A stretch of 64,000 nucleotides of DNA from Nemertoderma westbladi (Eukaryota; Animalia; Xenacoelomorpha). Below the pieces are notes generated by a model, which was given only the letters and a program-made list of their open reading frames with translations, did not search any database and was not told the DNA's origin. The translations under genes and the position numbers were made by a program. How positions within the stretch are numbered: the stretch's first letter is position 1; each line of letters opens with the position of its first letter. The DNA lies in assembly GCA_032718475.1 (NCBI GenBank), contig JAUCBJ010000732.1, positions 62,001 through 126,000 of the forward strand, given 5' to 3'. Shown here one piece after another: positions 3,910 through 63,737 of this stretch.

Positions 3910-4410
3910 CTGTAGAAATACAAAAAGGTTTAAGTTAGATGTAATATCGTGATTCATAATATTACAATTACCTGAAACACTCTTATCTATTCGAATTACA
4001 ATTAAAAATATTCAAAGATTCACATTTGCATCTATGATAAAATGCCATAAGTTTTTGTCTTACCATAAGGTGGCATTAGTGTCATTATCTTATTGACCAT
4101 ATCCACAACATTGTGTATTTGGTTATGATAAAAAAGAAATGGCGAATTAGAGTGTCACTAAACTATTTCATCCTTTTATTCAGATGGAAATAAAGTTATG
4201 TGTAAAATATAATATCAAATACAAAATCCCTATTCTAGAACTGCAAATATTAGGACCACTGTTTTGAGCCAAAGTGGCCACCAAACGCACTATTGATAGA
4301 ATTGTCTTTATCTACTGTATCCTTGATTAAAATACAATAAGTAGCAAATTAAGAATAAATTACAGTTACATTTTCAATTAATGGTATTACATTAATGGAA
4401 ACATATTTAC

Positions 4411-18259: not shown

Positions 18260-18349
18260 GTGAGTAAATGTATGGCATGATAAATTATCCAAAGTTTATG
18301 ATAAAACAAACGAGTTTTCATTTAGTAGTTAATTATTGTAATATTGCAT

Positions 18350-21300
18350 TACTATTATTGTAATTATTGTTTCATCTGTTGTATTATTGTAATAGTTGTT
18401 TTATCTGTTGTATTATTGTAATTGTTGTTTTATCTGTTGTATTATTGTAATTGTTGTTTTATCTGCTGTATTATTGTAATTGTTGTTTTATCTGTTGTAT
18501 TATTGTAATTGTTGTTTTATCTGTTGTATTATTGTAATTGTTGTTTTATCTGTTGTATTATTGTAATTGTTGTTTTATCTGTTGTATTATTGTAATTGTT
18601 GTTTTATCTGCTGTATTATTGTAATTGTTGTTTTATCTGTTGTATTATTGTAATTGTTGTTTTATCTGTTGTATTATTGTAATTGTTGTTTTATCTGTTG
18701 TATTGTTGTAATTGTTGTTTTATCTGTTGTATTATTGTAATTGTTGTTTTATCTGTTGTATTATTGTAATTGTTGTTTCATCTGTTGTATTATTGTAATT
18801 GTTGTTTCATCTGTTGTATTATTGTAATTGTTGTTTTATCTGTTGTATTATTGTAATTGTTGTTTTATCTGTTGTATTATTGTAATTGTTGTTTAATCTG
18901 TTGTATTATTGTAATTGTTGTTTTATCTGTTGTATTATTGTAATTGTTGTTTTATCTGTTGTATTATTGTAATTGTTGTTTTATCTGTTGTATTATTGTA
19001 ATTGTTGTTTTATCTGTTGTATTATTGTAATTGTTGTTTAATCTGTTGTATTATTGTAATTGTTGTTTTATCTGTTGTATTATTGTAATTGTTGTTTCAT
19101 CTGTTGTATTATTGTAATTGTTGTTTCATCTGTTGTATTATTGTAATTGTTGTTTTATCTGTTGTATTATTGTAATTGTTGTTTTATCTGTTGTATTATT
19201 GTAATTGTTGTTTTATCTGTTGTATTATTGTAATTGTTGTTTTATCTGTTGTATTATTGTAATTGTTGTTTTATCTGTTGTATTATTGTAATTGTTGTTT
19301 TATCTGTTGTATTATTGTAATTGTTGTTTTATCTGTTGTATTATTGTAATTGTTGTTTTATCTGTTGTATTATTGTAATTGTTGTTTTATCTGTTGTATT
19401 ATTGTAATTGTTGTTTTATCTGTGTATTATTGTAATTGTTGTTTTATCTGTTGTATTATTGTAATTGTTGTTTTATCTGTTGTATTATTGTAATTGTTGT
19501 TTTATCTGTTGTATTATTGTAATTGTTGTTTTATCTGTTGTATTATTGTAATTGTTGTTTTATCTGTTGTATTATTGTAATTGTTGTTTTATCTGTTGTA
19601 TTATTGTAATTGTTGTTTTATCTGTTGTATTATTGTAATTGTTGTTTTATCTGTTGTATTATTGTAATTGTTGTTTTATCTGTTGTATTATTGTAATTGT
19701 TGTTTTATCTGTTGTATTATTGTAATTGTTGTTTTATCTGTTGTATTATTGTAATTGTTGTTTTATCTGTTGTATTATTGTAATTGTTGTTTTATCTGTT
19801 GTATTATTGTAATTGTTGTTTTATCTGTTGTATTATTGTAATTGTTGTTTTATCTGTTGTATTATTGTAATTGTTGTTTTATCTGTTGTATTATTGTAAT
19901 TGTTGTTTTATCTGTTGTATTATTGTAATTGTTGTTTTATCTGTTGTATTATTGTAATTGTTGTTTTATCTGTTGTATTATTGTAATTGTTGTTTTATCT
20001 GTTGTATTATTGTAATTGTTGTTTTATCTGTTGTATTATTGTAATTGTTGTTTTATCTGTTGTATTATTGTAATTGTTGTTTTATCTGTTGTATTATTGT
20101 AATTGTTGTTTTATCTGTTGTATTATTTTAATTGTTGTTTTATCTGTTGTATTATTGTAATTGTTGTTTTATCTGTTGTATTATTGTAATTGTTGTTTTA
20201 TCTGTTGTATTATTGTAATTGTTGTTTTATCTGTTGTATTATTGTAATTGTTGTTTTATCTGTTGTATTATTGTAATTGTTGTTTTATCTGTTGTATTAT
20301 TGTAATTGTTGTTTTATCTGTTGTATTGTTGTAATTGTTGTTTTATCTGTTGTATTGTTGTAATTGTTGTTTTATCTGTTGTATTATTGTAATTGTTGTT
20401 TTATCTGTTGTATTATTGTAATTGTTGTTTTATCTGTTGTATTATTGTAATTGTTGTTTTATCTGTTGTATTATTGTAATTGTTGTTTTATCTGTTGTAT
20501 TATTGTAATTGTTGTTTTATCTGTTGTATTATTGTAATAGTTGTTTTATCTGTTGTATTATTGTAATTGTTGTTTTATCTGTTGTATTGTTGTAATTGTT
20601 GTTTTATCTGTTGTATTATTGTAATTGTTGTTTTATCTGTTGTATTGTTGTAATTGTTGTTTTATCTGTTGTATTGTTGTAATTGTTGTTTTATCTGTTG
20701 TATTATTGTAATTGTTGTTTCATCTGTTGTATTATTGTAATTGTTGTTTTATCTGTTGTATTATTGTAATTGTTGTTTTATCTGTTGTATTGTTGTAATT
20801 GTTGTTTTATCTGTTGTATTGTTGTAATTGTTGTTTTATCTGTTGTAGTATTGTAATTGTTGTTTTATCTGTTGTATTATTGTAATTGTTGTTTTATCTG
20901 TTGTATTATTGTAATTGTTGTTTCATCTGTTGTATTATTGTAATTGTTGTTTTATCTGTTGTATTATTGTAATTGTTGTTTTATCTGTTGTATTATTGTA
21001 ATTGTTGTTTTATCTGTTGTATTGTTGTAATTGTTGTTTTATCTGTTGTATTATTGTAATTGTTGTTTTATCTGTTGTAGTATTGTAATTGTTGTTTTAT
21101 CTGCTGTATTATTGTAATTGTTGTTTTATCTGTTGTATTGTTGTAATTGTTGTTTTATCTGTTGTATTATTGTAATTGTTGTTTTATCTGTTGTAGTATT
21201 GTAATTGTTGTTTTATCTGCTGTATTATTGTAATTGTTGTTTTATCTGTTGTATTGTTGTAATTGTTGTTTTATCTGTTGTATTATTGTAATTGTTGTTT

Positions 21301-23950
21301 TATCTGTTGTATTGTTGTAATTGTTGTTTTATCTGCTGTATTATTGTAATTGTTGTTTTATCTGTCGTATTATTGTAATTGTTGTTTTATCTGTTGTATT
21401 ATTGTAATTGTTGTTTTATCTGTTGTAGTATTGTAATTGTTGTTTTATCTGCTGTATTATTGTAATTGTTGTTTTATCTGTTGTATTGTTGTAATTGTTG
21501 TTTTATCTGTTGTATTATTGTAATTGTTGTTTTATCTGTTGTAGTATTGTAATTGTTGTTTTATCTGCTGTATTATTGTAATTGTTGTTTTATCTGTTGT
21601 ATTGTTGTAATTGTTGTTTTATCTGTTGTATTATTGTAATTGTTGTTTTATCTGTTGTATTGTTGTAATTGTTGTTTTATCTGTTGTATTATTGTAATTG
21701 TTGTTTTATCTGCTGTATTATTGTAATTGTTGTTTTATCTGCTGTATTATTGTAATTGTTGTTTTATCTGTTGTATTGTTGTAATTGTTGTTTTATCTGT
21801 TGTATTATTGTAATTGTTGTTTTATCTGTTGTATTGTTGTAATTGTTGTTTTATCTGTTGTATTATTGTAATTGTTGTTTTATCTGTTGTATTATTGTAA
21901 TTGTTGTTTTATCTGTTGTATTATTGTAATTGTTGTTTTATCTGTTGTATTATTGTAATTGTTGTTTTATCTGTTGTATTGTTGTAATTGTTGTTTTATC
22001 TGTTGTATTGTTGTAATTGTTGTTTTATCTGTTGTATTATTGTAATTGTTGTTTTATCTGTTGTATTGTTGTAATTGTTGTTTTATCTGTTGTATTATTG
22101 TAATTGTTGTTTCATCTGTTGTATTATTGTAATTGTTGTTTTATCTGTTGTATTATTGTAATTGTTGTTTTATCTGTTGTATTGTTGTAATTGTTGTTTT
22201 ATCTGTTGTATTGTTGTAATTGTTGTTTTATCTGTTGTATTATTGTAATTGTTGTTTTATCTGTTGTATTATTGTAATTGTTGTTTTATCTGTTGTATTA
22301 TTGTAATTGTTGTTTTATCTGTTGTATTATTGTAATTGTTGTTTTATCTGTTGTATTATTGTAATTGTTGTTTCATCTGTTGTATTATTGTAATTGTTGT
22401 TTTATCTGTTGTATTATTGTAATTGTTGTTTTATCTGTTGTATTATTGTAATTGTTGTTTTATCTGTTGTATTGTTGTAATTGTTGTTTTATCTGTTGTA
22501 TTATTGTAATTGTTGTTTTATCTGTTGTATTATTGTAATTGTTGTTTTATCTGTTGTATTGTTGTAATTGTTGTTTTATCTGTTGTATTGTTGTAATTGT
22601 TGTTTTATCTGTTGTATTATTGTAATTGTTGTTTCATCTGTTGTATTATTGTAATTGTTGTTTTATCTGTTGTATTATTGTAATTGTTGTTTTATCTGTT
22701 GTATTATTGTAATTGTTGTTTTATCTGTTGTATTATTGTAATTGTTGTTTTATCTGTTGTATTATTGTAATTGTTGTTTTATCTGTTGTATTGTTGTAAT
22801 TGTTGTTTTATCTGTTGTATTATTGTAATTGTTGTTTTATCTGTTGTATTATTGTAATTGTTGTTTTATCTGTTGTATTATTGTAATTGTTATTTTATCT
22901 GTTGTATTATTGTAATTGTTGTTTTATCTGTTGTATTATTGTAATTGTTGTTTTATATGTTGTATTATTGTAATTGTTGTTTTATCTGTTGTATTATTGT
23001 AATTGTTGTTTTATCTGTTGTATTATTGTAATTGTTGTTTTATCTGTTGTATTATTGTAATTGTTGTTTTATCTGTTGTATTATTGTAATTGTTGTTTTA
23101 TCTGTTGTGTTATTGTAATTGTTGTTTTATCTGTTGTATTATTGTAATTGTTGTTTTATCTGTTGTATTATTGTAATTGTTGTTTTATCTGTTGTATTAT
23201 TGTAATTGTTGTTTTATCTGTTGTATTATTGTAATTGTTGTTTTATCTGTTGTATTATTGTAATTGTTGTTTTATCTGTTGTATTATTGTAATTGTTGTT
23301 TTATATGTTGTATTATTGTAATTATTGTTTCATCTGTTGTATTATTGTAATTGTTGTTTTATCTGTTGTATTGTTGTAATTGTTGTTTTATCTGTTGTAT
23401 TATTGTAATTGTTGTTTTATCTGTTGTATTGTTGTAATTGTTGTTTTATCTGTTGTATTATTGTAATTGTTGTTTTATCTGTTGTATTATTGTAATTGTT
23501 GTTTTATCTGTTGTATTATTGTAATTGTTGTTTTATCTGTTGTATTGTTGTAATTGTTGTTTTATCTGTTGTATTATTGTAATTGTTGTTTTATCTGTTG
23601 TATTATTGTAATTGTTGTTTTATCTGTTGTATTATTGTAATTGTTGTTTTATCTGTTGTATTGTTGTAATTGTTGTTTTATCTGTTGTATTATTGTAATT
23701 GTTGTATTATCTGTTGTATTGTTGTAATTGTTGTTTTATCTGTTGTATTGTTGTAATTGTTGTTTTATCTGTTGTATTATTGTAATTGTTGTTTTATCTG
23801 TTGTATTGTTGTAATTGTTGTTTTATCTGTTGTATTATTGTAATTGTTGTTTCATCTGTTGTATTATTGTAATAGTTGTTTTATCTATTGTATTATTGTA
23901 ATTATTGTTTCATCTGTTGTATTATTGTAATTGTTGTTTTATTGTAATTA
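18350..23950. repeat. 29-bp satellite (ttgttgttttatctgttgtattattgtaa), ~190 copies, just upstream of the CKAP5-like exon
   Basis: Highly homogeneous tandem array with degenerate edges; ends about 45 nt before the acceptor at 23994. Confidence 0.97.
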
Positions 23951-23994
23951 TTATCAATGAATTAGTCTAACTATAATAAATGTATTATTTGCAG

Positions 23995-26900
23995 AAGCAA
24001 TTACCGCCTATGAAAAAGATGGTAATGGTGTATATATAATTGGCAACAAGGATGCTAAAAACAAACGTATTGAGGATGCAGCCAGTGGTAAAGTGATGAG
24101 ATGGAACTTTATTGACCCGTGGAATGAGTTTATAGAACAACTAAAAGATCAAATGGAGAAGTGGTTTAGTCCAATATTGTTTGACCTTTTGTTTAGCAAT
24201 CACTTCCAACATCACCTAGTAGCTCTTTCTCTTCTGGAAAAGTCTTTACATAATAACCCGGACGATTTACATTCACATTTGGATTTGATACTAAAATGGA
24301 TTTCATTAAGACTCTTTGACGTCTATGCAACATCTGTGCAGTTGAAAACATTAGAATTTTTACAAAATCTAATCTCTACTCTCGTCGAATTAAATTATCA
24401 GATGCTGGACTTCGAAGGAAATATTTTTATAAAACATCTTATCAAGCGCTTATCCGACACTCGAGAAGAGATTCGAAAAAGGACGCGTTTCGTTTTGAAA
24501 CAATTACAGCGCATATATTCGACAAAAAAGATATCCATGCATCTCATCAGGGGATTAACATCTCCACTACCGAGAATGAAAACACAATGCCTCATTGAGT
24601 TACAGGGTTTAACCAACGGAATACACGATATATTGTTCCAACCAAATACTATTCAACTAGTAGCTGGTTTAACACGACATCGGGATGCCTCAGTGCGAAT
24701 GCAATCACTTCAAATGTTGACGAAAATTCACGAAACCGTTGGAAAGACGATGTATAAAAATCTCGGTCCGCTGTCAGACAGCGAGAAGTACATCATCGAG
24801 AAAAAGGTAGAACAAGCGACTGCATCACAATACAGGAAAATACCCTTAATAAAATCAAACTCAATTAGTGAAAATCTGAATGTTGGAAGATTAAAACATT
24901 CGCGAACAAGACGCCTGTCTGCTTCAGAAAAATACGAAAATAAAATAGCATCAATCGATATTGCGGCTGGTGGAGACGTAAATGACATGAATACAGATGA
25001 TGTAAATACGGACATTTCGCATAGAAATACCACTGGGGGCAAAACAGAAGACGAATCCGAGAAAATAACTAATAAATCTGAAAGGCAAACTGTGAAACCC
25101 GGTCAAAGAACAAGTAGATCGGAAAGTGCAACTGTCAAACCCGGTCAAAGAACTAGTAGATCTGAAAGCGAAACTGCCAAACCCGACCAAAGAATTAGTA
25201 GATCTGAAAGCGAAACTGCCAAACCCGACCAAAGAATTAGTAGATCTGAAAGCGAAACTGTCAAACCCGACCAAAGAATTAGTAGATCTGAAAGCGAAAC
25301 TGCCAAACCCCACCAAATAATTAGTAGATCTGAAAGCCAAACTGTTAACCCCGGTCAAACAACTGGTAGATCTGAAAGTGCAACTGTCAAATCTGGTCAG
25401 AGAACTAGTAGATCTGAAAGCGAAACTGTCAAATCTGGTCAAAGAATAAGTAGATCGGAAAGTGCAACTGTCAAACCTGGTCAAAGAATTAGTAGATCTG
25501 AAAGGCAAACTGTCAAACCCGGTCAAAGAACTGGTAGATCTGAAAGCCAAACAGTCAAACCCGGTCAAAGAACTAGTAGATCTGAAAGCGAAACTGTCAA
25601 ATCTGGTCAAAGAACTAGTAGATCTGAAAGGCAAACTGTCAAACCCGGTCAAAGAACTGGTAGATCTGAAAGCCAAACAGTCAAACCTGGTCAAAGAACT
25701 AGTAGATCTGAAAGCGAAACTGCCAAACCCGACCAAAGAATTAGTAGATCTGAAAGGCAAACTGTCAAACCCGGTCAAAGAACTGGTAGATCTGAAAGCC
25801 AAACAGTCAAACCCGGTCAAAGAACTAGTAGATCTGAAAGCGAAACTGTCAAATCTGGTCAAAGAATTAGTAGATCTGAAAGCGAAACTGCCAAACCCGA
25901 CCAAATAATTAGTAGATCTGAAAGCCAAACTGTTAACCCCGGTCAAAGAACTAGTAGATCTGAAATCGAAACTGCCAAACCCGACCAAATAATTAGTAGA
26001 TCTGAAAGGCAAACTGTCAAACCCGGTCAAAGAACTGGTAGATCTGAAAGCCAAACAGTCAAACCCGGTCAAAGAACTAGTAGATCTGAAAGCGAAACTG
26101 TCAAATCTGGTCAAAGAATTAGTAGATCTGAAAGCGAAACTGCCAAACCCGACCAAATAATTAGTAGATCTGAAAGCCAAACTGTTAACCCCGGTCAAAC
26201 AACTGGTAGATCTGAAAGTGCAACTGTCAAATCTGGTCAGAGAACATGTAGATCTGAAAGGCAAATTCACAAAAATGGTAAAAGCAATAGTAGGCCTACT
26301 TTTCAAACACCCGATAAAGACAACCAAAGCAATGATGATAAATCTTTATCTACAAATCGAAGTGCTAGTACGAATGAAAGTCAGGAATATAGGAGCAGTA
26401 GCAAATCCCAAGGTCAAATTGATATGAGTATCCAAAGAGCCAGTCGATCACAAAGTCGATGCTCAGATAGTAGCAGACTTCACAGATCCCAAAGTCTGCA
26501 GGAGAAATCGAATGCGACTTATAGTACAGGAGAAATACAACAGGCTTCTAGAATGTATAAGAGAAAATCCCCACCTAAACCTGAAATAAGTTTCATGCAA
26601 AAAACTAAACCAACAATTAGTAGGATGAGGAGAAAGTCAAGCGAGGCAACCAAAGTTTATCCTGTTAGATATAAAGAAATTTTTTCTCCTGAAACAACTA
26701 CAAATAAGACGAACACCAATAACATAAATCAATGCATATATAAAAATGATAATTACCGTCTCAAAAACAAAAAAACACCAAGTATCACCAAACGCGGAGA
26801 ATCTGCAACATATATGTTAAGAGATGACATCAAGCAACACTGGAACCCTGTTCGATACGTGTCCTTAGACTTCAACGCATTAGAGGAAAGATTCAACAAC

Positions 26901-28283
26901 GAAGTTGAGTTCAGCGAGGAAATTAGAACCACAGACAGTGTTGGCGAGTCATGCAGCCTAACTTCTCAAGAGAGTTACAGACCGGTAATAACATCGATTT
27001 CCGCACAAGATGTTATTAGGAAGAGACGTTTAAGAAATATGCTCAAACTTATAAAGGATGTTATAGAGACTATAGGAAGTCTTGATGATACAGAGAGTCT
27101 TCACGGGGTCTATCAGTTAGCTGCTATTATAGAAGACCCAGCTAAGTACGTTCTACTAGCAAGTTGTGTTGATATGATTATTTCAACATCATGTAAAAAA
27201 CTAAAAACTGCTAATCAAACAATCCTGAACAATAAACTATCCCTGAAAATATTTCGCAGTCTCATTGCTGTTGCACTAAAACTCTTCAACAACAAAGACC
27301 TAGCTGTACATTCGAATGTTAGTTCATTGGTTCTCGCCTTGGAAACATGTCTTTTACTGGTCAAATCAAATCAGGTCAAAAATCACGACGATAGTGAGCA
27401 GCTGAGAAGAAGTTTAAATTTGTTAACCTTAAATATTCTCTCTTTTGGGAACGAAACTAACGTATATGTAACTTTGATACGAATTGCAACGATCTGCTTA
27501 GATGGAGACATATCATCCCGAATGGTATCCATGGTTCTAACATGTTTTGGTAAGAAACTGTCAACATTTTCTAATTTTATTACTAATATCAAGTTTGGGG
27601 TACTTGTTGAAGAATGCTGCGCTTTCATTGAAAAGGTCACCTTTCTGGAAGTGATAAACAAAACAAGCTTAGATCTACTTGCTAGTATAAAAACCTTGTT
27701 ATATTTCATTTGTGTTGTTATACACGACGGAATATTGATGTATGTTCCAAACAACATCAACATCCACAAGCCACTCAATATTCACTTAGATGCGTTTCTC
27801 ACAAAAGCACTAAAAGCAGCCAAATACAACTCCAATACAGCCAATGGGATATCTTTCTCTCCAGCTAATCTGGCTCGATTAAAATATCAATGCGATTTGT
27901 CCACAGTGCAATCCTTAGTGCGCAGAATATTTCTTACCAATAACCCAATACTAGCATTGCAAAATCTACAATTATTTCTAAGTCAGCGACCTTACATGGA
28001 TATCGAATTATTTCTTATGGAATCCAATGTTGAGGAACGGCGCTACATAAGTAACGGACTTTGGTTTATCAGTCTCTATGGAAAAGATTTAACGGGAAAC
28101 CCTGGCAACAACGATGTGCCAGATGACGCGACTTACGAGGAAAAGCTGGACTACTACGCGGAGTGCCTCGAAGTAGATGAGGAGTACAAGGATTGTGTAG
28201 AAAGGTTGGAAGACGTACAAGATATTAAATGTGTTGCATCAGCGAAAAACAACAGATCATCATCCTACTGCAGAGTTATGTGA
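23995..28283 (+). CDS. CKAP5/ch-TOG/XMAP215-like protein, terminal exon (TOG5 HEAT repeats, repeat-expanded linker, C-terminal helical domain)
   Basis: KVMRWNF..P..EFIEQLKDQM...FQHH..AL...LDLILKWISLRLFD...SVQLKTLEFL matches recalled TOG5 of CKAP5. The C-terminal QLRRSLNLLTLNIL resembles the CKAP5 tail domain. Branch-like ctaac plus tatttgcag| acceptor at 23994; the frame is open from there (phase 1). Confidence 0.85.
25075..26265 (+). repeat. Coding minisatellite, 42-bp unit (14 aa, TVKPGQRTSRSESE-like), ~28 copies
   Basis: Visible in DNA (recurrent agtagatctgaaag) and in the 1396-aa ORF; frame preserved throughout. Confidence 0.95.
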
Positions 28284-28688
28284 TAAACTACCGCGGTCCC
28301 AGAAGTGATCGAAGTGGTTCAGCTTCAAGATTATTCATGGCACAAGGTGATTGTCAAATATAGGATATTGTAAGATTTATTCTAAGGTCACCACTATAAG
28401 ATTATCAGGTCTAAAAGATCCTCATCAGACCTTTGATGTAAAGCAATGGCTGGATATTTTTGTGACCATAATGTGCAAAATTGTGCAAATTGACCGTAAA
28501 ACTAACCTGAGATACAAACTTTGGATATAAGACAGATGTTAGCCACACTAATATGGTTCAGTTAATACAAAACATAGACATTGTCTTCCTGCAGAGCGAA
28601 TATTATTTATTTTTCATAGTAATTTATTAAAATCAGCAAATTTGAATAATAAATTATACAAAGTAAAAGCGCTTAGTTCATTGCGAAG

Positions 28689-29577
28689 CAGGACCTTATC
28701 GCCCCAGGAACTTATCGCCCCTGGACCTTATCGCCCCAGGACCTTATCGTCCCAGGACCTTATCGCCCCAGGACCTTATCGCCCCAGGACCTTATCGCCC
28801 CAGGACCTTATCTCCCCAGGACCTTATCGCCCCAGGACCTTATCGCCCCAGGACCTTATCGCCCCAGGACCTTATCATCCCAGGACCTTATCATACCAGG
28901 ACCTTATCACCCCAGGACCTTATCGTCCCAGGACTTTATCGTCCCAGGACCTTATCGCCTCAGGACCTTATCGTCCCAGGACCTTATCGCCCCAGAACCT
29001 TATTGCCACAGGACCTTATCGCCCCAGGACCTTATCGCCCCAGGACCTTATCGCCCCAGGACCTTATCGCCCCTGGGACTCTATCGCCCCTATAAATTGC
29101 ATTTTTGTTGGGAACTTATCACCCCTCTGTTCTGAGTTTTTAGGAACTTATCGCCCAGAGTCTTTATCGCCCCAGGACCTTATCGCCCAAGGACCTTATC
29201 GCACCAGTGCCTTATCGCCCCAGGACCTTATCGCCCCAGGACCTTATCATCCCAGGACCTTATTGCCCCAGGACCTTATCTTCCCAGGACCTTATCACCC
29301 CAGGACCTTATCGTCCCAGGACCTTATCGTCCCAGGACCTTATCGCCTCAGGACCTTATCGCCCCAGGACCTTATCGCCCCAGGACCTTATCGCCCCAGG
29401 ACCTTATCGCCCCAGGACCTTATCGTCCCAGGATCTTATCATCCCAGGACCTTATCGCCCCAGGACCTTATTGTCCCAGGACCTTATCGCCCCTGGGACT
29501 CTATCGCCCCTATAAATTGCATTTTTGTTGGGAACTTATCACCCCTCTGTTCTGAGTTTTTAGGAACTTATCGCCCC
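28689..29577. repeat. 16-bp minisatellite (caggaccttatcgccc) with a 420-bp higher-order duplication; probable left arm of a foldback/MITE-like element
   Basis: Tandem 16-mers; the spacer gggactctatcgcccctataaattgc occurs at 29075 and 29495. Confidence 0.9.
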
Positions 29578-29732
29578 TGTCATTATATACATGATACATT
29601 CCCTCAACTTTCCCATACACTTCCTCTCAGTCACATATTTTAATTAAAAGTTTACTTTATATTTTTATACTAAAATAGTTTCTTTTAGAGGAGCCTACAA
29701 TTAGAAAAATTAATATTAAATTCAAAGACTAA

Positions 29733-29890
29733 GCAGCCGTTTGATCTAATGGTAACAATCTGGGCTTTCATTTAGGAGGTCCCAGGTTCGATCCCTGGAC
29801 GTCGCAGTACTTTTTGGGCAGTGGGCTTTAAATGCTACAGACTAGCTCTACCAAGGTTTTCACATTTACTGGTCGATAAATGGGAACCAT
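29733..29890 (+). mobile_element. tRNA(Glu)-derived SINE head with possible Nin/Deu-like central motif
   Basis: A-box-like tgatctaatggta; TTC anticodon-like loop ctttcat; perfect T arm ccagg-ttcgatc-cctgg (B box); imperfect acceptor and anticodon stems. Downstream ggtcgataaatgggaacc resembles the recalled Nin/Deu-SINE core. Confidence 0.65.
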
Positions 29891-31265
29891 TGGAAGGGTT
29901 TACTGTGGAAGATTACCCATGGTGGTGAACAGGCATTCCTTTAGGAAACAGAGTGGAAGGGTTTACTGTGGAAGATAAGCCATGGTGGTGATCAGGCATT
30001 CCTTTGGGAAACAGAGTGGAAGGGTTTACTGTGGAAGATAAGCCATGGTGGTGATCAGGCATTCCTTTGGGAAACAGAGTGGAAGGGTTTACTGTGGAAG
30101 ATCACCCATGGTGGTGAACAGGCATTCCTTTAGGAAACAGAGTGGAAGGGTTTACTGTGGAAGATAAGCCATGGTGGTGATCAGGCATTCCTTTGGAAAA
30201 CAGAGTGGAAGGGTTTACTGTGGAAGATCACCCATGGTGGTGAACAGGCATTCCTTTAGGAAACAGAGTGGAAGGGTTTACTGTGGAAGATCACCCATGG
30301 TGGTGAACAGGCATTCATTTAGGAAACAGAGTGGAAGGGTTTACTGTGGAAGATAAGCCATGGTGGTGATCAGGCATTCCTTTGGAAAACAGAGTGGAAG
30401 GGTTTACTGTGGAAGATCACCCATGGTGGTGAACAGGCATTCCTTTAGGAAACAGAGTGGAATGGTTTACTGCGGAAGATCACCCATGGTGGTGAACAGG
30501 CATTTTTTAGGAAAACAGAGTTGATGGACTTAAACATCCAAGATCACCCATGGCGGTGAACAGGCATTCCTTTAGGAAACAGAGTGGAAGGGTTTACTGT
30601 GGAAGATAAGCCATGGTGGTGATCAGGCATTCCTTTGGGAAACAGAGTGGAAGGGTTTACTGTGGAAGATCACCCATGGTGGTGAACAGGCATTCCTTTA
30701 GGAAACAGAGTGGAAGGGTTTACTGTGGAAGATCACCCATGGTGGTGAACAGGCATTCCTTTAGGACAACAGAGTTGATGGACTTAAACATCCAAGATCA
30801 CCCATGGCGGTGAACAGGCATTCCTTTAGGAAACAGAGTGGAAGGGTTTACTGTGGAAGATAAGCCATGGTGGTGCTCAGGCATTCCTTTGGGAAACAGA
30901 GTGGAAGGGTTTACTGTGGAAGATCACCAATGGTGGTGAACAGGCATTCCTTTAGGAAACAGAGTGGAAGGGTTTACTCTGGAAGATCACCCATGGTGGT
31001 GAACAGGCATTCCTTTAGGAAACAGAGTGGAAGGGTTTACTGTGGAAGATCACCCATGGTGGTGAACAGGCATTCCTTTAGGAAACAGAGTGGAAGGGTT
31101 CACTGTGGAAGATCACCCATGGTGGTGAACAGGCATTCCTTTAGGAAACAGAGTGGAAGGGGTTACTGTGGAAGATCACCCATGGTGGTGAACAGGCATT
31201 CCTTTAGGAAACAGAGTGGAAGGGTTTACTGTGGAAGATCACCCATGGTGGTGAACAGGCATTCC
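29891..31265. repeat. 63-bp tandem array, ~22 copies, directly following the SINE head
   Basis: Unit tggaagggtttactgtggaagatcacccatggtggtgaacaggcattcctttaggaaacagag; two copies carry the alternative segment ttgatggacttaaacatcc. Confidence 0.95.
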
Positions 31266-31315
31266 ATGTTTACTAGGCCTAAATGATTATCCCATTCAAA
31301 ATTCATATTTGTCAC

Positions 31316-31425
31316 AGTGGCGATAAGTTACCAGGGGGGATAAAGACCTGGGGGCGATATGTACCCAAGGGGCGATAAAGGACCATTCGGGGGGCGATAA
31401 GGCCCAGGGTCGATAAGGCCCCTAC
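31316..31425. repeat. Inverted, diverged copies of the 16-bp motif (ggggcgataagg); probable right arm of the element starting ~28689
   Basis: About six ggcgataa-type motifs, the reverse complement of ttatcgcc in the left array. Confidence 0.7.
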
Positions 31426-31599
31426 AATCACTCATTAATAGTTTGCAGGTGATAGTTGATTGATTGATTAGCATGAATAATGCGTTGTCAAATACATACC
31501 AATTATTGAATGAAACAATAAACCTAACTGAATAAATAAAACTAAAAAAATTAAAGCAGTACTGTGTCAGTCATACGAAGGTTTATCCAACCTAAGTGT

Positions 31600-31931
31600 A
31601 CTGGGACCAATTTTGCAAGCGAGGTGATTGTATTGTAGTATCTCGGAAGTGTAGGAGAGTTGGTTTTAAATAAAACTACTCCATACTTGGAAATACTACC
31701 ACTCCACCACCCTTCGAAAAATAGACCCCAGTATGCATATAGTACTGGTTGCACTTGAAACTTGGACAAAGCCGCCTCCGCTTTACGGGACATTGCTGCC
31801 GCCGTGAAGACCAGCCTGTGCACAATATGGTGCTTTGGCGGCCTCATGTATAGAAAAAGCATGGTTGACAGCCCATGAGTTTCTTGAGTCGCATCTTAAA
31901 GGACACTTGCCTTGAAGATGCGGATGATCTA
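31600..31931 (+). mobile_element. 3' remnant of an RTE-like LINE
   Basis: Translates QSRLRFTGHCCRREDQPVHNMVLWRPH*...QPMSFLSRILKDT, the typical RTE-clade ORF C-terminus, with stops. Confidence 0.65.
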
Positions 31932-31933
31932 TT

Positions 31934-33328
31934 ATGGGTTACACTTACCTCTACAAAGTATGCTGTACACCCAGTATGGGTTACACTTACCTCTACAAAG
32001 TGTGCTGTACACCCAGTATGGGTTACACTTACCTCTACAAAGTGTGCTGTAGACCCAGTATGGGTTACACTTACCTCTACAAAGTATGCTGTACACCCAG
32101 TATGGGTTACACTTACCTCTACAAAGTTTGATGTACACCCAGTATGGGTTACACTTACCTCTACAAAGTGTGCTGTACACCCAGTATGGGTTACACTTAC
32201 CTCTACAAAGTATGCTGTACACCCAGTATGGGTTACACTTACCTCTACAAAGTGTGATGTACACCCAGTATGGGTTACACTTACCTCTACAAAGTGTGCT
32301 GTACACCCAGTATGGGTTACACTTACCTCTAGAAAGTATGCTGTACACCCAGTATGGGTTACACTTACCTCTACAAAGTGTGATGTACACCCAGTATGGG
32401 TTACACTTACCTCTACAAAGTGTGCTGTACACCCAGTATGGGTTACACTTACATCTACAAAGTGTGATGTACACCCAGTATGGGTTACACTTACCTCTAC
32501 AAAGTGTGCTGTACACCCAGTATGGGTTACACTTACCTCTACAAAGTATGCTGTACACCCAGTATGGGTTACACTTACCTCTACAAAGTGTGCTGTACAC
32601 CCAGTAAGGGTTACACTTACCTCTACAAAGTGTGCTGTACACCCAGTATGGGTTACACTTACCTCTACAAAGTATGCTGTACACCCAGTATGGGTTACAC
32701 TTACCTCTACAAAGTGTGATGTACACCCAGTATGGGTTACACTTACCTCTACAAAGTGTGCTGTACACCCAGTATGGGTTACACTTACCTCTACAAAGTG
32801 TGATGTACACCCAGTATGGGTTACACTTACCTCTACAAAGTGTGCTGTACACCCAGTATGGGTTACACTTACCTCTACAAAGTGTGATGTACACCCAGTA
32901 TGGGTTACACTTACCTCTACAAAGTGTGATGTACACCCAGTATGGGTTACACTTACCTCTACAAAGTGTGCTGTACACCCAGTATGGGTTACACTTACCT
33001 CTACAAAGTGTGATGTACACCCAGTATGGGTTACACTTACCTCTACAAAGTGTGCTGTCCACCCAGTAAGGGTTACACTTACCTCTACAAAGTGTGCTGT
33101 ACACCCAGTATGGGTTACACTTACCTCTACAAAGTGTGCTGTACACCCTGTATGGGTTACACTTACCTCTACAAAGTGTGATGTACACCCAGTATGGGTT
33201 ACACTTACCTCTACAAAGTGTGCTGTCCACCCAGTAAGGGTTACACTTACCTCTACAAAGTGTGCTGTACACCCAGTATGGGTTACACTTACCTCTACAA
33301 AGTGTGCTGTACACCCAGTAAGGGTTAC
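31934..33328 (-). repeat. 42-bp tandem array = last 36 nt of a GART exon + GTAAGT donor, 33 donor copies
   Basis: Unit GTAACCCATACTGGGTGTACAGCACACTTTGTAGAG|GTAAGT; donors at 33292 down to 31948 in 42-bp steps. Confidence 0.96.
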
Positions 33329-33547
33329 CCCGGCAGCGAGCACTAATTCATGGGCGTTACCACCTTTGAAGCTCGGGAGCAGTGACGGATGTACGTTAAT
33401 AAGACGGCCACGCCATTTCTCCACGAACCCGGCGGATAATATTCTCATATACCCGGCTAGACAGACCAACTCTATCCCATGAGACTCAAGGATGGCGCTC
33501 ACCTTATCGTCAAATGATTCGCGTTTAAGGCCTTTATGACTTAAAAC
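33293..33547 (-). CDS. GART: GART exon, GAR transformylase domain (VLSHK...LAGYMRIL...INVHPSLLPSFKG...TGCTAHFVE)
   Basis: PurN motifs present; acceptor ttcctag|GTT; first donor GAG|gtaagt; 255 bp, phase 0/0. Confidence 0.93.
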
Positions 33548-34299
33548 CTAGGAATCGCATAACAAAACATTTATCAGATAAATCGGTTAAATTATTGTTA
33601 AAATGGAAACGGCTTTTCAATTAAATTAAATACTCTGCGACCGCTGTATACCTAGACTCAAACTCACTTAAAAGTGGCCTCTATTGAGTGATTTATTTTT
33701 TTTGTTAAAATTTTACTTTTGTAAATGCATAAAATTACATATCAATGGAAAGTGTTATTATTAAATATGGAACACCCAATGGCATGGAGATTGGGAGGCA
33801 TTAATAAGATGATTCATTATCATATCCAATCCAGCATAACCGTGTAGTGATTGACACCGACAGGTTCAACCTGTACACATCCTTGTGGTGGTGAGAATAG
33901 ACGCGGTGGGCAGCCAGTGACTTAAACGCCTGCTCAAGGACAACGGACGTGAGAATAGCTGAATGAAAAAGATGGCTGATCGGAGATCTGGGGCCGATCC
34001 GCCGGCATCGCATACGTGCTTAGTAGCAACGTAGCTTATAGCAGACGGCTTAGTGCAAGCTGAGCAATTTAAGTTAAGATGCTAGTAGCAAGTTACAGTG
34101 GCACGTTATTCTAACCAAAACAATAAACTAAAGTCAATAGATCAGGTTAGACTTTTATTTTAGAGATTATAAGTAATCAGCTCTGTTATTTGCGTCGATT
34201 TTACCCTGGGATGAATTTTGATTGCGTCACAAATCCCCCCATCTGATGGCCGATTCAAATAATATTAATTGAATTAACACGTTGAACATTTCGGCTAAC

Positions 34300-34430
34300 C
34301 TCGGTGGGTATGTTTGCATCTCTAGCCCTTCCTAAACCTTGAACCCCTTCCTTATTGGAGAATACGAGACGAATATCGTAGGCGCAATCGTGATTCTTTG
34401 TGTAGTCGATTATAGCTTGTAGATTAGTTC
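34300..34430 (-). CDS. GART: GART exon, start of transformylase domain (GTNLQAIID...VFSNKEGVQGLGRARDANIPTE)
   Basis: Not in the ORF track; hand-translated. Acceptor ttttgtttag|GA, donor GAG|gttagc; 131 bp, phases fit both neighbours. Confidence 0.92.
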
Positions 34431-34846
34431 CTAAACAAAAACAGTTTAATCCAAAATAGTTTGAACCAAATTATTTAACGACTTTACTTAACATAAAGGG
34501 AAGTTACATAATTAATCAAAAAATTCATATCACATTACAGCTGAACATTCAAATCGGCCACGACATACCGGCGCTATTGAGGAGGCCCTGCCTATAAAAT
34601 TAATTTAGAAACTAGAAAATATAAAATTCGTGTAATTCAGTGTCACTTCACAACAAACGTTTGATATCATGTTGTTTATTAGCAATCATTTCGTCTGTTT
34701 GGTATAAAACCGTAAACTTATTGGGCTGCAAAGTTCTTTATGATGTGCTTCTCCTCCAACATTACTCCACTAACTGCGTTGTAACAAAACAGCCATACAA
34801 CGTGCCGGTACACTAAACCAATCACTAAGTATCAGTTAACACGCAC

Positions 34847-35394
34847 CTGAACCGGAAATTAGAACAGCCAATTTCTTTTTACGAATGATCCTATTGGTTA
34901 GCGGGAGTGGCAGTTTATAGCTGTTATCCAATGAAGACTCTAGATTAGCGATTATGACGTCATTAGCAGGACGACGAACAACCGAGCCAATCACTGACGA
35001 GGAGATGTCGCCTTTCAGTGATTGTATTACAGTATCAACCACCGATTGGTCAACTATTAAAACAAACCCGACTCCACAGTTGAAGGTGCGAGCCATCTCG
35101 TTGGCTGGAATGTTGCCTAACTTGTACAAATAACCCAGTATCGGCGGAATGCGCCAGGCATTGGCGTCGAGATCTACAGCCAATGAGGGCGGCAGGATTC
35201 GTGGAATATTGTCGGTTAAACCGCCGCCAGTTATGTGCGCCGCCGCTTTTATGAGGCCCTTAGTGATCAACGGCAGTACTAGAGATACATACAGATAAGT
35301 TGGTGTGAGTAAAGTCTCGAATAAAGGTCGATCGGTTGGAGTTACCCCGGCAACAGAGTCACTGAGGCTCACTTTAGCGCATTCTAGAACCTTC
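34847..35394 (-). CDS. GART: GART exon, AIR synthetase C-terminal domain and linker
   Basis: LLTPT, AHITGGGLTDNIPRILP, EMARTFNCGVG, AVLISGSG; acceptor ttttgcag|G, donor TCAG|gtgcgt; 548 bp. Confidence 0.95.
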
Positions 35395-35731
35395 CTGCAA
35401 AAAATAAACACCAACTACATAACGCACCAGGAGTAACGCGTTAATTTGCATTACATCGGTAATACTATATAATTATGTAACTTTTTAATAATATACCTAC
35501 TGTAAAAATTGTTAGAATACTTTTTAATTAAAATTGAATTGAAGATCCACCTTTAGTGGAAATGGAAATCCTAATCCATCGTGAGTAAAAATCACACATA
35601 ATTTCTATAGCGGTATATCTATTTATAACATTCATAATCATAAGTGCTTTTTGACATCGCCTGTAATAATACAGAATTAAAATTTATATTGAAAAGCAAA
35701 ACCCAACAAATATAAAATTTATTAAACTGAC

Positions 35732-35915
35732 CTAACTAAGGAAAATCCGTTGCTATGGACCCCGGATGACGCTATTCCTATAACTGCGTCACCGGGCGTG
35801 ACGTCACTGGGTTCCTTCGGCAACACGAGGGACCGCTCAACCGCACCGACGGCGAATCCGGCTACATCGTAATCGCCGTCCCGGTACATTCCCGGCATCT
35901 CGGCCGTCTCGCCAC
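35732..35915 (-). CDS. GART: GART exon, AIR synthetase ([11 protein letters not shown]...[13 protein letters not shown]...[13 protein letters not shown])
   Basis: Hand-translated PurM motifs; acceptor cccgtttag|GT, donor AG|gtcagt; 184 bp, phase 1/2. Confidence 0.95.
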
Positions 35916-38900
35916 CTAAACGGGTGAGTAAAGAGCGGGAAATTCAAACACCATCTAGGGGACGTATATAGAAACACATACACCTAAACGGGTGAGTAAA
36001 GGGCGGGAAATTCAAACACCATCTAGGGGACATATATAGAAACACATACACCTAAACGGGTGAGTAAAGAGCGGTAAATTCAAACACCATCTAGGGGACG
36101 CATATAGAAACACATACACCTAAACGGGTGAGTAAAGAGCGGGAAATTCAAACACCATCTAGGGGACGCATATAGAAACACATACACCTAAACGGGTGAG
36201 TAAAGCGCGGGAAATTCAAACACCATCTAGGGGACGTATATAGAAACACATACACCTAAACGGGTGAGTAAAGAGCGGGAAATTCAAACACCATCTAGGG
36301 GACGCATATAGAAACACATACACCTAAACGGGTGAGTAAAGAGCGGGAAATTCAAACACCATCTAGGGGACGCATATAGAAACACATACACCGAAACGGG
36401 TGAGTAAAGAGCGGGAAATTCAAACACCATCTAGGGGACGCATATAGAAACACATACACCTAAACGGGTGAGTAAAGAGCGGGAAATTCAAACACCATCT
36501 AGGGGACGTTAATAGAAACACATACACCTAAACGGGTGAGTAAAGAGCGGGAAATTCAAACACCATCTAGGGGACGTATATAGAAACACATACACCGAAA
36601 CGGGTGAGTAAAGAGCGGGAAATTCAAACACAATCTAGGGGACGCATATAGAAACACATACACCGAAACGGGTGAGTAAAGAGCGAGACATTCAAACACC
36701 ATCTAGGGGACGTATATAGAAACACATACACCTAAACGGGTGAGTAAAGAGCGGGAAATTCAAACACCATCTAGGGGACATATATAGATACACATACACC
36801 GAAACGGGTGAGTAAAGAGCGGGAAATTCAAACACCATCTAGTGGACTAGAAACACATACACCGAAACGGGTGAGTAAAGAGCGGGAAATTCAAACACCA
36901 TCTAGGGGACGTATATAGAAACACATACACCTAAACGGGTGAGTAAAGAGCGGGAAATTCAAACACCATCTAGGGGACATATATAGATACACATACACCT
37001 AAACGGGTGAGTAAAGAGCGGTAAATTCAAACACCATCTAGGGGACGCATATAGAAACACATACACCTAAACGGGTGAGTAAAGAGCGGGAAATTCAAAC
37101 ACCATCTAGTGGACTAGAAACACATACACCGAAACGGGTGAGTAAAGAGCGGTAAATTCAAACACCATCTAGGGGACGTATATAGAAACACATACACCTA
37201 AACGGGTGAGTAAAGAGCGGGAAATTCAAGCACAATCAAGGGGACGTATATAGAAACACATACACCTAAACGGGTGAGTAAAGAGCGGTAAATTCAAACA
37301 CCATCTAGGGGACGTATATAGAAACACATACACCTAAACGGGTGAGTAAAGAGCGGGAAATTCAAGCACAATCAAGGGGACGTATATAGAAACACATACA
37401 CCTAAACGGGTGAGTAAAGAGCGGGAAATTCAAACACAATCTAGGGGACGCATATAGAAACACATACACCTAAACGGGTGAGTAAAGAGCGGGAAATTCA
37501 AACACCATCTAGGGGACGTTAATAGAAACACATACACCTAAACGGGTGAGTAAAGAGCGGGAAATTCAAACACCATCTAGGGGACGTATATAGAAACACA
37601 TACACCTAAACGGGTGAGTAAAGAGCGGGAAATTCAAACACCATCTAGGGGACGTATATAGAAACACATACACCTAAACGGGTGAGTAAAGAGCGAGACA
37701 TTCAAACACCATCTAGGACACGTATATAGAAACACATACACCTAAACGGGTGAGTAAAGAGCGGGAAATTCAAGCACAATCAAGGGGACGCATATAGAAA
37801 CACATACACCTAAACGGGTGAGTAAAGAGCGGTAAATTCAAACACCATCTAGGGGACGTATATAGAAACACATACACCTAAACGGGTGAGTAAAGAGCGG
37901 GAAATTCAAACACCATCTAGGGGACGTATATAGAAACACATACACCTAAACGGGTGAGTAAAGAGCGAGACATTCAAACACCATCTAGGACACGTATATA
38001 GAAACACATACACCTAAACGGGTGAGTAAAGGGCGGGAAATTCAAACACCATCTAGGGGACGTTAATAGAAACACATACACCTAAACGGGTGAGTAAAGA
38101 GCGAGACATTCAAACACCATCTAGGGGACGTTAATAGAAACACATACACCTAAACGGGTGAGTAAAGAGCGGGAAATTCAAACACCATCTAGGGGACGTA
38201 TATAGAAACACATACACCTAAACGGGTGAGTAAAGAGCGGGAAATTCAAACACCATCTAGGGGACGCTAATAGAAACACATACACCTAAACGGGTGAGTA
38301 AAGAGCGGGAAATTCAAACACCATCTAGGGGACGTTAATAGAAACACATACACCTAAACGGGTGAGTAAAGAGCGAGACATTCAAACACCATCTAGGGGA
38401 CGTATATAGAAACACATACACCGAAACGGGTGAGTAAAGAGCGGTAAATTCAAACACCATCTAGGGGACGTTAATAGAAACACATACACCTAAACGGGTG
38501 AGTAAAGAGCGAGACATTCAAACACCATCTAGGGGACGTATATAGAAACACATACACCTAAACGGGTGAGTAAAGAGCGGGAAATTCAAACACCATCTAG
38601 GGGACGCATATAGAAACACATACACCTAAACGGGTGAGTAAAGAGCGGGAAATTCAAACACCATCTAGGGGACGCATATAGAAACACATACACCGAAACG
38701 GGTGAGTAAAGAGCGGTAAATTCAAACACCATCTAGGGGACGTTAATAGAAACACATACACCTAAACGGGTGAGTAAAGAGCGGTAAATTCAAACACCAT
38801 CTAGGGGACGTTAATAGAAACACATACACCTAAACGGGTGAGTAAAGAGCGGGAAATTCAAACACCATCTAGGGGACGCATATAGAAACACATACACCGA

Positions 38901-59900: not shown

Positions 59901-62900
59901 CACATACACCTAAACGGGTGAGTAAAGAGCGGGAAATTCAAACACCATCTAGGGGACGCATATAGAAACACATACACCGAAACGGGTGAGTAAAGAGCGG
60001 GAAATTCAAACACAATCTAGGGGACGTTAATAGAAACACATACACCTAAACGGGTGACTAAAGAGCGGGAAATTCAAACACAATCTAGTGGACGTATATA
60101 GAAACACATACACCTAAACGGGTGAGTAAAGAGTGGGAAATTCAAACACCATCTAGGGGACGTTAATAGAAACACATACACCTAAACGGGTGAGTAAAGA
60201 GCGAGACATTCAAACACCATCTAGGGGACGCATATAGAAACACATACACCTAAACGGGTGAGTAAAGAGCGGGAAATTCAAACACCATCTAGGGGACGCA
60301 TATAGAAACACATACACCTAAACGGGTGAGTAAAGAGCGGGAAATTCAAACACCATCTAGGGGACGTATATAGATACACATACACCGAAACGGGTGAGTA
60401 AAGAGCGGGAAATTCAAACACAATCTAGGGGACGTTAATAGAAACACATACACCTAAACGGGTGAGTAAAGAGCGGGAAATTCAAACACCATCTAGTGGA
60501 CGTATATAGAAACACATACACCTAAACGGGTGAGTAAAGAGCGAGACATTCAAACACCATCTAGGGGACGCCTATAGAAACACATACACCTAAACGGGTG
60601 AGTAAAGAGCGGGAAATTCAAACACCATCTAGGGGACGCATATAGAAACACATACACCTAAACGGGTGAGTAAAGAGCGGGAAATTCAAACACCATCTAG
60701 GGGATGTTAATAGAAACACATACACCTAAACGGGTGAGTAAAGAGCGAGACATTCAAACACCATCTAGGGGACGTTAATAGAAACACATACACCTAAACG
60801 GGTGAGTAAAGAGCGGGAAATTCAAACACCATCTAGGGGACGTATATAGAAAACATACACCGAAACGGGTGAGTAAAGAGCGGGAAATTCAAACACAATC
60901 TAGGGGACGTTAATAGAAACACATACACCTAAACGGGTGAGTAAAGAGCGGGAAATTCAAACACCATCTAGTGGACGTATATAGAAACACATACACCTAA
61001 ACGGGTGAGTAAAGAGCGGGAAATTCAAACACCATCTAGGGGACGTTAATAGAAACACATACACCTAAACGGGTGAGTAAAGAGCGGGAAATTCAAACAC
61101 CATCTAGGGGACGTTAATAGAAACACATACACCTAAACGGGTGAGTAAAGAGCGGGAAATTCAAACACCATCTAGGGGACGTTAATAGAAACACATACAC
61201 CTAAACGGGTGAGTAAAGAGCGAGACATTCAAACACCATCTAGGGGACGTTAATAGAAACACATACACCTAAACGGGTGAGTAAAGAGCGGGAAATTCAA
61301 ACACCATCTAGGGGACGTATATAGAAACACATACACCGAAACGGGTGAGTAAAGAGCGGGAAATTCAAACACCATCTAGTGGACGTATATAGAAACACAT
61401 ACACCTAAACGGGTGAGTAAAGAGCGAGACATTCAAACACCATCTAGGGGACGCCTATAGAAACACATACACCTAAACGGGTGAGTAAAGAGCGGGAAAT
61501 TCAAACACCATCTAGGGGACGCATATAGAAACACATACACCGAAACGGGTGAGTAAAGAGCGGGAAATTCAAACACAATCTAGGGGACGTTAATAGAAAC
61601 ACATACACCTAAACGGGTGACTAAAGAGCGGGAAATTCAAACACAATCTAGTGGACGTATATAGAAACACATACACCTAAACGGGTGAGTAAAGAGTGGG
61701 AAATTCAAACACCATCTAGGGGACGTTAATAGAAACACATACACCTAAACGGGTGAGTAAAGAGCGAGACATTCAAACACCATCTAGGGGACGCATATAG
61801 AAACACATACACCTAAACGGGTGAGTAAAGAGCGGGAAATTCAAACACCATCTAGGGGACGCATATAGAAACACATACACCTAAACGGGTGAGTAAAGAG
61901 CGGGAAATTCAAACACCATCTAGGGGACGTATATAGATACACATACACCGAAACGGGTGAGTAAAGAGCGGGAAATTCAAACACAATCTAGGGGACGTTA
62001 ATAGAAACACATACACCTAAACGGGTGAGTAAAGAGCGGGAAATTCAAACACCATCTAGTGGACGTATATAGAAACACATACACCTAAACGGGTGAGTAA
62101 AGAGCGAGACATTCAAACACCATCTAGGGGACGCCTATAGAAACACATACACCTAAACGGGTGAGTAAAGAGCGGGAAATTCAAACACCATCTAGGGGAC
62201 GCATATAGAAACACATACACCTAAACGGGTGAGTAAAGAGCGGGAAATTCAAACACCATCTAGGGGACGTTAATAGAAACACATACACCTAAACGGGTGA
62301 GTAAAGAGCGGGAAATTCAAACACCATCTAGGGGACGTATATAGAAACACATACACCGAAACGGGTGAGTAAAGAGCGGGAAATTCAAACACAATCTAGG
62401 GGACGTTAATAGAAACACATACACCTAAACGGGTGAGTAAAGAGCGGGAAATTCAAACACCATCTAGGGGACGCATATAGAAACACATACACCTAAACGG
62501 GTGAGTAAAGAGCGGGAAATTCAAACACCATCTAGGGGACGTTAATAGAAACACATACACCTAAACGGGTGAGTAAAGAGCGGGAAATTCAAACACCATC
62601 TAGGGGACGTATATAGAAACACATACACCGAAACGGGTGAGTAAAGAGCGGGAAATTCAAACACCATCTAGGGGACGTCTATAGAAACACATACACCTAA
62701 ACGGGTGAGTAAAGAGCGGGAAATTCAAACACCATCTAGGGGACGTTAATAGAAACACATACACCTAAACGGGTGAGTAAAGAGCGGGAAATTCAAACAC
62801 CATCTAGGGGACGCATATAGAAACACATACACCTAAACGGGTGAGTAAAGAGCGGGAAATTCAAACACCATCTAGGGGACGTATATAGAAACACATACAC

Positions 62901-63671
62901 CTAAACGGGTGAGTAAAGAGCGGTAAATTCAAACACCATCTAGGGGACGTTAATAGAAACACATACACCTAAACGGGTGAGTAAAGAGCGAGACATTCAA
63001 ACACCATCTAGGGGACGCCTATAGAAACACATACACCTAAACGGGTGAGTAAAGAGCGGGAAATTCAAACACCATCTAGGGGACGCATATAGAAACACAT
63101 ACACCTAAACGGGTGAGTAAAGAGCGGGAAATTCAAACACCATCTAGGGGATGTTAATAGAAACACATACACCTAAACGGGTGAGTAAAGAGCGAGACAT
63201 TCAAACACCATCTAGGGGACGCCTATAGAAACACATACACCTAAACGGGTGAGTAAAGAGCGGGAAATTCAAACACCATCTAGGGGACGCATATAGAAAC
63301 ACATACACCGAAACGGGTGAGTAAAGAGCGGGAAATTCAAACACAATCTAGGGGACGTTAATAGAAACACATACACCTAAACGGGTGACTAAAGAGCGGG
63401 AAATTCAAACACCATCTAGTGGACGTATATAGAAACACATACACCTAAACGGGTGAGTAAAGAGTGGGAAATTCAAACACCATCTAGGGGACGTTAATAG
63501 AAACACATACACCTAAACGGGTGAGTAAAGAGCGAGACATTCAAACACCATCTAGGGGACGCATATAGAAACACATACACCTAAACGGGTGAGTAAAGAG
63601 CGGGAAATTCAAACACCATCTAGGGGACGCATATAGAAACACATACACCGAAACGGGTGAGTAAAGAGCGG
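35913..63671 (-). repeat. 68-bp satellite, ~408 copies, filling GART intron 35916-63737; each unit contains the intron's 3' splice site
   Basis: Plus-strand unit cacctaaacgggtgagtaaagagcgggaaattcaaacaccatctaggggacgtatatagaaacacata; the terminal copy supplies the functional acceptor at 35916. Confidence 0.97.
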
Positions 63672-63737
63672 TTAAATCGTGCTACGGCATAGAGGAACAG
63701 TGAGTGACAATAATTAGCATCAACTATCACAACCCAC

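Follow-up and report, generated by a model that had tools for sequence, protein, structure and literature searches.

Why should tandem arrays that share no sequence lie together at the borders of exons and introns? This question is raised by a 64,000-nt stretch of the Nemertoderma westbladi genome (contig JAUCBJ010000732.1, positions 62,001-126,000, forward strand; hereafter the window), in which a sequence-only reading had noticed three unrelated arrays at or beside splice junctions and had suggested that a lineage-specific process amplifies local sequence there. Calling tandem arrays over the whole window with Tandem Repeats Finder (TRF) recovered all three, with units of 29, 42 and 68 bp. 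The 42-bp and 68-bp arrays lie in a gene for trifunctional GART and reproduce one of its donors and one of its acceptors, respectively, while the 29-bp array precedes an exon of a CKAP5-like gene. The explanation that we favour, and hold to be fairly probable, is that both GART arrays are copies of the gene's own splice signals: local slippage and successive rounds of unequal exchange would have enlarged them, and they would be tolerated because the true site stays beside its exon, the 29-bp array being a plain intronic repeat near an acceptor.

Two arrays that carry GART splice junctions

Homology and splice motifs place five GART exons on the minus strand: exon A (63936-63738, by homology), which encodes the N-terminal part of AIR synthase, exon B (35915-35732), exon C (35394-34847), exon D (34430-34300) and exon E (33547-33293), which encodes the formyltransferase domain. 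Contigs from four of the six runs on record (X1-X4) were compared with the window, and those of X4 support exons B to E as well. X4 is on record as 'DNA?'; since its contigs skip three small GART introns (337, 416 and 752 nt) exactly at GT..AG, and those of X1-X3 do not show these joins, we took it to be RNA-like. X2 and X3 are labelled as the same, second sample and carry many single-base differences from the window.

The junctions in use next to the arrays can be read from three X4 contigs. Contig 25 tracks exon E to 33291 and then departs with 566 more letters, fixing the authentic donor at 33293|33292; contig 28 tracks exon B to 35916 and departs with 409 more letters, the authentic acceptor being 35916|35915; and contig 26 starts at 23995, the first base of the CKAP5-like exon, with 30 foreign letters. 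In this one RNA-like run, therefore, the major form uses the first donor of the 42-bp array, the last acceptor of the 68-bp array and the acceptor behind the 29-bp array. Exons A and B are contiguous in homologues (residues 502-565 and 567-630 of P0010), so that the intron between them measures 27,822 nt; the join itself is based on this contiguity and on a G at 35916 that agrees with it. The last GART exon was not found in the window, either with a hidden Markov model from 61 homologue C-termini or with tblastn (best E=1.8 and 0.27), and the intron behind the 42-bp array is for this reason longer than 33 kb.

The 42-bp array (31933-33328, minus strand; TRF copy number 33.2, 96% matches) stands across a donor, as had been described. 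Its unit consists of the last 36 nt of exon E followed by GTAAGT, and the array comprises 33 full units, one authentic and 32 decoys, plus a 10-nt partial unit. All 33 full units keep GTAAGT, which is preceded by GAG in 32 of them, so that 31 decoys read GAG|GTAAGT. The unit amounts to 14 codons and the array is free of stops in the frame of exon E (0 of 33 units). At unit position 8 exon E has a T, replaced by A in 29 of the 32 decoys and in the partial unit. No contig covers the inside of this array in any run, X1 included, which we do not read as absence.

The 68-bp array (35913-63671, minus strand; TRF copy number 408.4, 94% matches) is far larger, extending over 27.8 kb and filling 99.8% of the intron between exons A and B, which keeps a unique start of 66 nt (63672-63737, minus strand) that opens with the donor GTGGGT. 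Its unit holds the branch-like motif and the AG of the GART acceptor and the junction is used in X4; the description of this array as lying across an acceptor is accurate to that extent, but the unit reaches exon B by only 3 nt (GTG). The delimited units number 407, one 135-nt piece representing two of them, and AG closes 337 of them (336 decoys and the authentic one), CG the other 70 as well as the first partial copy. The full motif from branch to AG is kept in 320 of the 407, the six decoys nearest the authentic site are all intact, and every unit (407/407) contains an in-frame stop when entered from exon A. The remaining 45 nt of the unit were compared with exon A, exon B and the 66-nt intron start in six shuffle tests, none of which gave a significant similarity (p 0.05-0.92). 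The idea that the unit copies an exon, or the entire ancestral intron, was rejected because no alignment was significant.

Within the 68-bp array 61 variants of the unit can be told apart, and block duplications are nested in one another. Runs as long as 16 units recur 21-132 units away, whereas no recurring run exceeded 6 units in 100 shuffles. Variants are confined regionally (variant 5 occurs 11, 10, 2 and 0 times in successive quarters, variant 9 0, 0, 2 and 11 times), and together the block duplications and regional variants mark a concerted turnover of units within the array.

The T/G-rich 29-bp array (18353-23942, plus strand; TRF copy number 192.8, 97% matches) is of another kind. It had been placed just upstream of an acceptor, and X4 confirms that acceptor, but the array stops 52 nt short and carries no splice signal: the consensus lacks AG, and only 8 AG dinucleotides occur in its 5590 nt. 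The 52 nt of non-repeat intron that follow (23943-23994, plus strand) provide a branch-like CTAAC and the TTTGCAG acceptor of the CKAP5/XMAP215-like coding exon (23995-28283, plus strand), which includes a TOG domain and is 33% identical to P0241 over 270 aa. An upstream exon of this gene was not found in the window (0 matches at up to 3 mismatches and no further tblastn matches with six homologues), placing it outside and making the intron longer than 24 kb. One variant of the 29-bp unit occurs about 32 times in the window, and the contig that carries it has about 26 times the flank depth in X1 and about 8-11 times in X3, a difference that hints at length variation, contig depth in all runs not being copy number. 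Of the three arrays only the 68-bp one therefore bears out the idea that small introns were inflated, since the 42-bp and 29-bp arrays add 1.4 kb and 5.6 kb to introns of more than 33 and 24 kb.

The CKAP5-like exon has two further peculiarities. After the TOG domain it contains a coding 42-bp repeat (25063-26260, plus strand; 28 copies of 14 aa, rich in Ser, Arg and Thr) that is unrelated to the GART 42-bp unit, and at 24927 an X4 contig shows a one-base insertion in an A run, absent from X1-X3, that would shift the frame and is either an error or an allele.

Origin and persistence of the arrays

If the arrays were drawn from satellite or transposon families, similar units would be expected at many loci. 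Each of the three units maps only to its own array within the window, and in X1 and X2 the only long flank joined to the 29-bp unit is its own 5' flank, X2 adding two brief loose ends of 27 and 8 nt, each from a single contig. Two very high-copy dispersed elements in GART introns (about 31870-31931 and 34090-34160) are joined to flanks of hundreds of kinds; among the contigs listed no such pile-up was seen on the 42-bp or 68-bp unit, the latter being represented by short contigs only. In the window and in the contigs of X1-X4 the three units therefore look locus-specific, as the sequence-only reading had held for the two GART units. Searches of metagenome contigs with the 68-bp and 42-bp patterns gave 0 and 0 matches, which is uninformative for an animal.

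How each GART array could have begun is suggested by its edges. A short repeat may have seeded the first duplication: for the 42-bp unit a 9-of-10 microhomology between exon and intron, 42 nt apart, and for the 68-bp unit a duplicated acceptor segment of 26 nt, unless the far edge of that array has been lost. Such a microhomology seed would account for the A in place of T in most 42-bp copies, which an early mutation would explain too. Minisatellites with nested duplications and regional variants are expected from repeated unequal exchange or conversion, and the presence of both features in the 68-bp array argues that it grew stepwise by these means and not in one rolling-circle event.

Their persistence can be framed in similar terms. 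Both GART arrays extend only into the intron and leave the authentic site next to the exon, and arrays that leave the true site outermost would be those that survive selection. Exon definition or scanning for the first donor may select the outermost sites, as in the human F7 repeat described below, and slips would be buffered, since a decoy acceptor should lead to an immediate stop and a decoy donor to an in-frame repeat of 14 residues. Survival of junction-spanning duplications had been offered only as an alternative by the earlier reading, and it is the one that fits best.

Proximity to junctions was measured against a null in which arrays were collapsed to one unit, leaving 26.1 kb in total, 16.8 kb of it non-coding, and 11 mapped junctions; these counts exclude the coding 42-bp repeat and any seed position lying entirely within an exon. 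Besides the three arrays and the coding repeat TRF called eleven others in the window (units of 24, 147, 22, 37, 163, 14, 16, 63, 16, 15 and 15 bp), none of which had been counted when the pattern was proposed; 10 of the 14 non-coding arrays lie more than 60 nt from any junction. Among them are a 16-bp array (28689-29510, plus strand), 3.8 kb from any junction, and a 63-bp array of 22 copies (29891-31265, plus strand), 2.0 kb away. What stands of the recurring pattern is two arrays that contain a junction, the third being a neighbour. Two of 14 non-coding arrays spanning a junction compare with 0.41 expected (p=0.06), and for arrays scoring at least 100 (n=10) the figures are three within 60 nt (p=0.03) and two spanning (p=0.05). 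In addition a 68-nt seed placed in an intron of 89-157 nt, the length with the array collapsed, spans a junction 60-86% of the time, and the closeness to junctions is likely due in large part to this short-intron geometry.

Several points weigh against the view that local slippage and tolerance are sufficient. A junction is found at a distance of 60 nt or less for four of the 14 non-coding arrays, where 0.90 would be expected (p=0.009), a weak 15-bp array with a score of 52 being among these four; and for arrays scoring at least 1000 (n=5) three lie within 60 nt, against 0.31 expected (p=0.002), and two span a junction (p=0.007). These numbers are suggestive and may reflect a real seeding bias toward junctions, the excess in the window being modest and post hoc: the thresholds were set after the data had been seen, the window was selected because it shows the arrangement, and the background is raised by transposon debris. 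As to the putative seeding repeats, they were deduced from the edges of the arrays, where partial copies would look just the same. The splicing evidence comes from a single run, X4, whose contigs drop rare forms, and the favoured explanation has still to account for 336 intact acceptors being passed over.

The excess among the five largest arrays also speaks for the strongest competing explanation, in which splicing or transcription itself, through R-loops, stalled spliceosomes or breaks at junctions, seeds arrays in this lineage and inflates its introns. Two of the three large arrays near junctions are in one gene, and the density of tandem repeats is reported to rise toward the ends of introns in 31 plants and algae (PMC3887541). 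We nevertheless consider this explanation unlikely. The GC skew expected of R-loops is inconsistent on the transcribed strand, where the 68-bp array is C-skewed, the 42-bp array G-skewed and the 29-bp array either, so that the suggested R-loop link finds no consistent G skew behind it; folding of the units does not exceed that of shuffled sequences (z 0.18, 0.40 and 0.58); and most arrays lie away from junctions, boundary-spanning arrays occur in other lineages, and the window was chosen for its pattern. Seeding by hairpins was rejected, 0 of 4 units folding better than shuffles.

Less probable again is that the arrays were seeded at the edges of mobile-element insertions or at repair scars, with junction proximity incidental. 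A high-copy dispersed element (31869-31931, extent approximate, minus strand), recognised by its very high summed depth, is cut off at 31931, one base from the 10-nt partial unit of the 42-bp array, and loose ends accumulate there in X1-X4 (31, 67, 43 and 4 contigs). Likewise the 29-bp array begins 58 nt from a truncated retroelement-like open reading frame (17183-18295; aspartyl protease match E=2.4e-4, below the cut-off), and the 16-bp array has an inverted partner in a foldback-like arrangement. On the other hand neither end of the 68-bp array shows the edge of an element, repeats are so dense locally that adjacency is cheap, and the element beside the 42-bp array may have inserted after the array had grown. 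The reading frame of that element may be that of the 3' end of a long interspersed nuclear element. A 9-nt match to the 42-bp unit about 190 nt past the array might have marked a target-site duplication, a reading that was discarded because the end of the element is not fixed.

A further possibility, which we rate as very improbable, is that the 68-bp array acts as a series of AG|GT points for recursive splicing, by which the 27.8-kb intron is removed stepwise. The units do start with GT and 337 of 407 end in AG after a branch-like motif, but the AG|GT arises because exon B starts with GT. The donor restored after each step would be TTG|GTGTAT, without the +5 G present in all five authentic GART donors (5/5), the better GTATGT two bases further on would leave 2 nt at every step, and the X4 join at 35916 matches exon A directly, the exon A side being drawn from homology and the matching G. 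Finally one-step rolling-circle amplification with reinsertion, which the sequence-only reading had entertained, or an assembly artefact is scarcely credible: the high identity of the units (94-97%) would suit either, but the 61 variants with nested blocks and regional turnover speak against a single step, and the contigs of the second sample (X2 and X3) enter the arrays at the same edges as the window, which argues against an artefact.

Mirages in other lineages and the scale of the acceptor array

In amphioxus, minisatellites termed 'mirages' have been described in BflGb6, BflGb9, Adh3, troponin C and PGBD5 (PMC3087553, PMC3902484); they lie at 5' and 3' boundaries, leave splicing undisturbed and were proposed in the same papers as a general trait of the lineage. 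The GART arrays are like them in being tandem copies of a boundary, many but not all of which keep the AG or GT, in the regular splicing, and in occurring several to a lineage. The 42-bp unit spans an exon-intron boundary whose donor is confirmed by X4, the 68-bp unit does so with a minimal exon part, and the major X4 contigs show regular splicing at the authentic site; the 29-bp array ends 52 nt before the AG. The GART arrays belong to this known class of mirages, and the 29-bp array does not. As junction-spanning minisatellites have been described in both amphioxus and human, lineage specificity is not supported.

Differences concern mainly size. The amphioxus globin mirages have 3-6 units of 150-160 bp, as described in those papers, compared with 33 and 408 units in GART, where the larger array spans 27.8 kb, takes up 99.8% of its intron and includes only 3 exon bases in each unit. 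In the human F7 gene mutagenesis has shown that only the most upstream donor of a 37-bp variable number tandem repeat in intron 7 is used (PMC1557585). The 42-bp array is similar in that its first unit spans the donor and the most upstream donor is used, the identical pseudo-donors downstream in F7 being silent; it differs in having 33 sites against 5-9 in F7, and in a unit that is a multiple of three and stop-free, with which a slip would be predicted to keep the frame. Internal tandem repeats in human segmental duplications (PMC2812944) resemble the GART arrays as boundary minisatellites that elongate introns, but are reported there as averaging about four copies of about 30 bp, often with alternative transcripts or new introns, none of which was seen in GART. 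The giant introns of Drosophila Y-linked genes (PMC6508621) are, like the 68-bp intron, almost wholly tandem repeat; they are of megabase scale, whereas the 68-bp unit is GART's own acceptor and appears confined to one locus. A review also cites thousands of human repeats near splice sites.

Phrase searches of open-access papers found no junction-containing array of hundreds of copies. The 68-bp acceptor mirage is more than ten times larger than the mirages compared here, and likely represents a known type of repeat that is tolerated and has here become exceptionally large, not the product of a new, splicing-driven process. Because the class is already known the general claim adds little, and what stands out is the scale. 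With about 336 near-identical, intact acceptors spaced at 68 nt over 27.8 kb ahead of the one used in a core purine-synthesis gene, the array puts 3' splice-site choice to an extreme natural test and could be used to measure how decoys are suppressed by exon definition, by competition and by the decay of faulty messages.

A bolder extension, which we regard as doubtful, is that mirages here grow to satellite scale and are a main route to giant introns, being seeded above chance genome-wide and expanding to tens of kilobases, with about 336 intact acceptors in an essential housekeeping gene passed by exon definition or stepwise splicing. Were junction-seeded arrays indeed common across the genome, they would provide a route to intron enlargement without transposons.

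Neighbouring genes and elements

By its homologues the window is animal DNA, the best matches being 30-51% identical and spread over many animals. Genes on the two strands are interleaved over positions 1-33292 of the window. The last GART intron (more than 33 kb, minus strand) contains the 4.3-kb CKAP5-like coding exon on the plus strand, and an ABCC4-like gene lies inside both GART and CKAP5-like introns. Its open reading frame (217-4011, minus strand) is uninterrupted over 1264 codons, is about 34% identical to the best matches across animals, and is possibly a retrocopy or the result of intron loss.

Remains of mobile elements are also present. Broken retroelement-like reading frames are found at 8764-10980 (plus strand) and 16767-18295 (minus strand), with DUF1759 and a weak aspartyl protease, the second being the frame truncated next to the 29-bp array. 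Inspection by eye showed a further element at 13189-14750, perhaps piggyBac-like, whose inverted ends match and lie at TTAA sites and which encloses a 163-bp tandem repeat. The inverted partner of the 16-bp array lies 2 kb off (31391-31421), so that the pair encloses the 63-bp array in a layout like that of a foldback element or a miniature inverted-repeat transposable element. A short interspersed nuclear element derived from transfer RNA, suspected just left of the 63-bp array, received no support from ARAGORN and Rfam. Polymorphism is high in the GART region, where over positions 34120-35963 an X3 contig disagrees with the window in 35 of 1838 letters; X2 and X3 are not identical either, despite being labelled as one sample.

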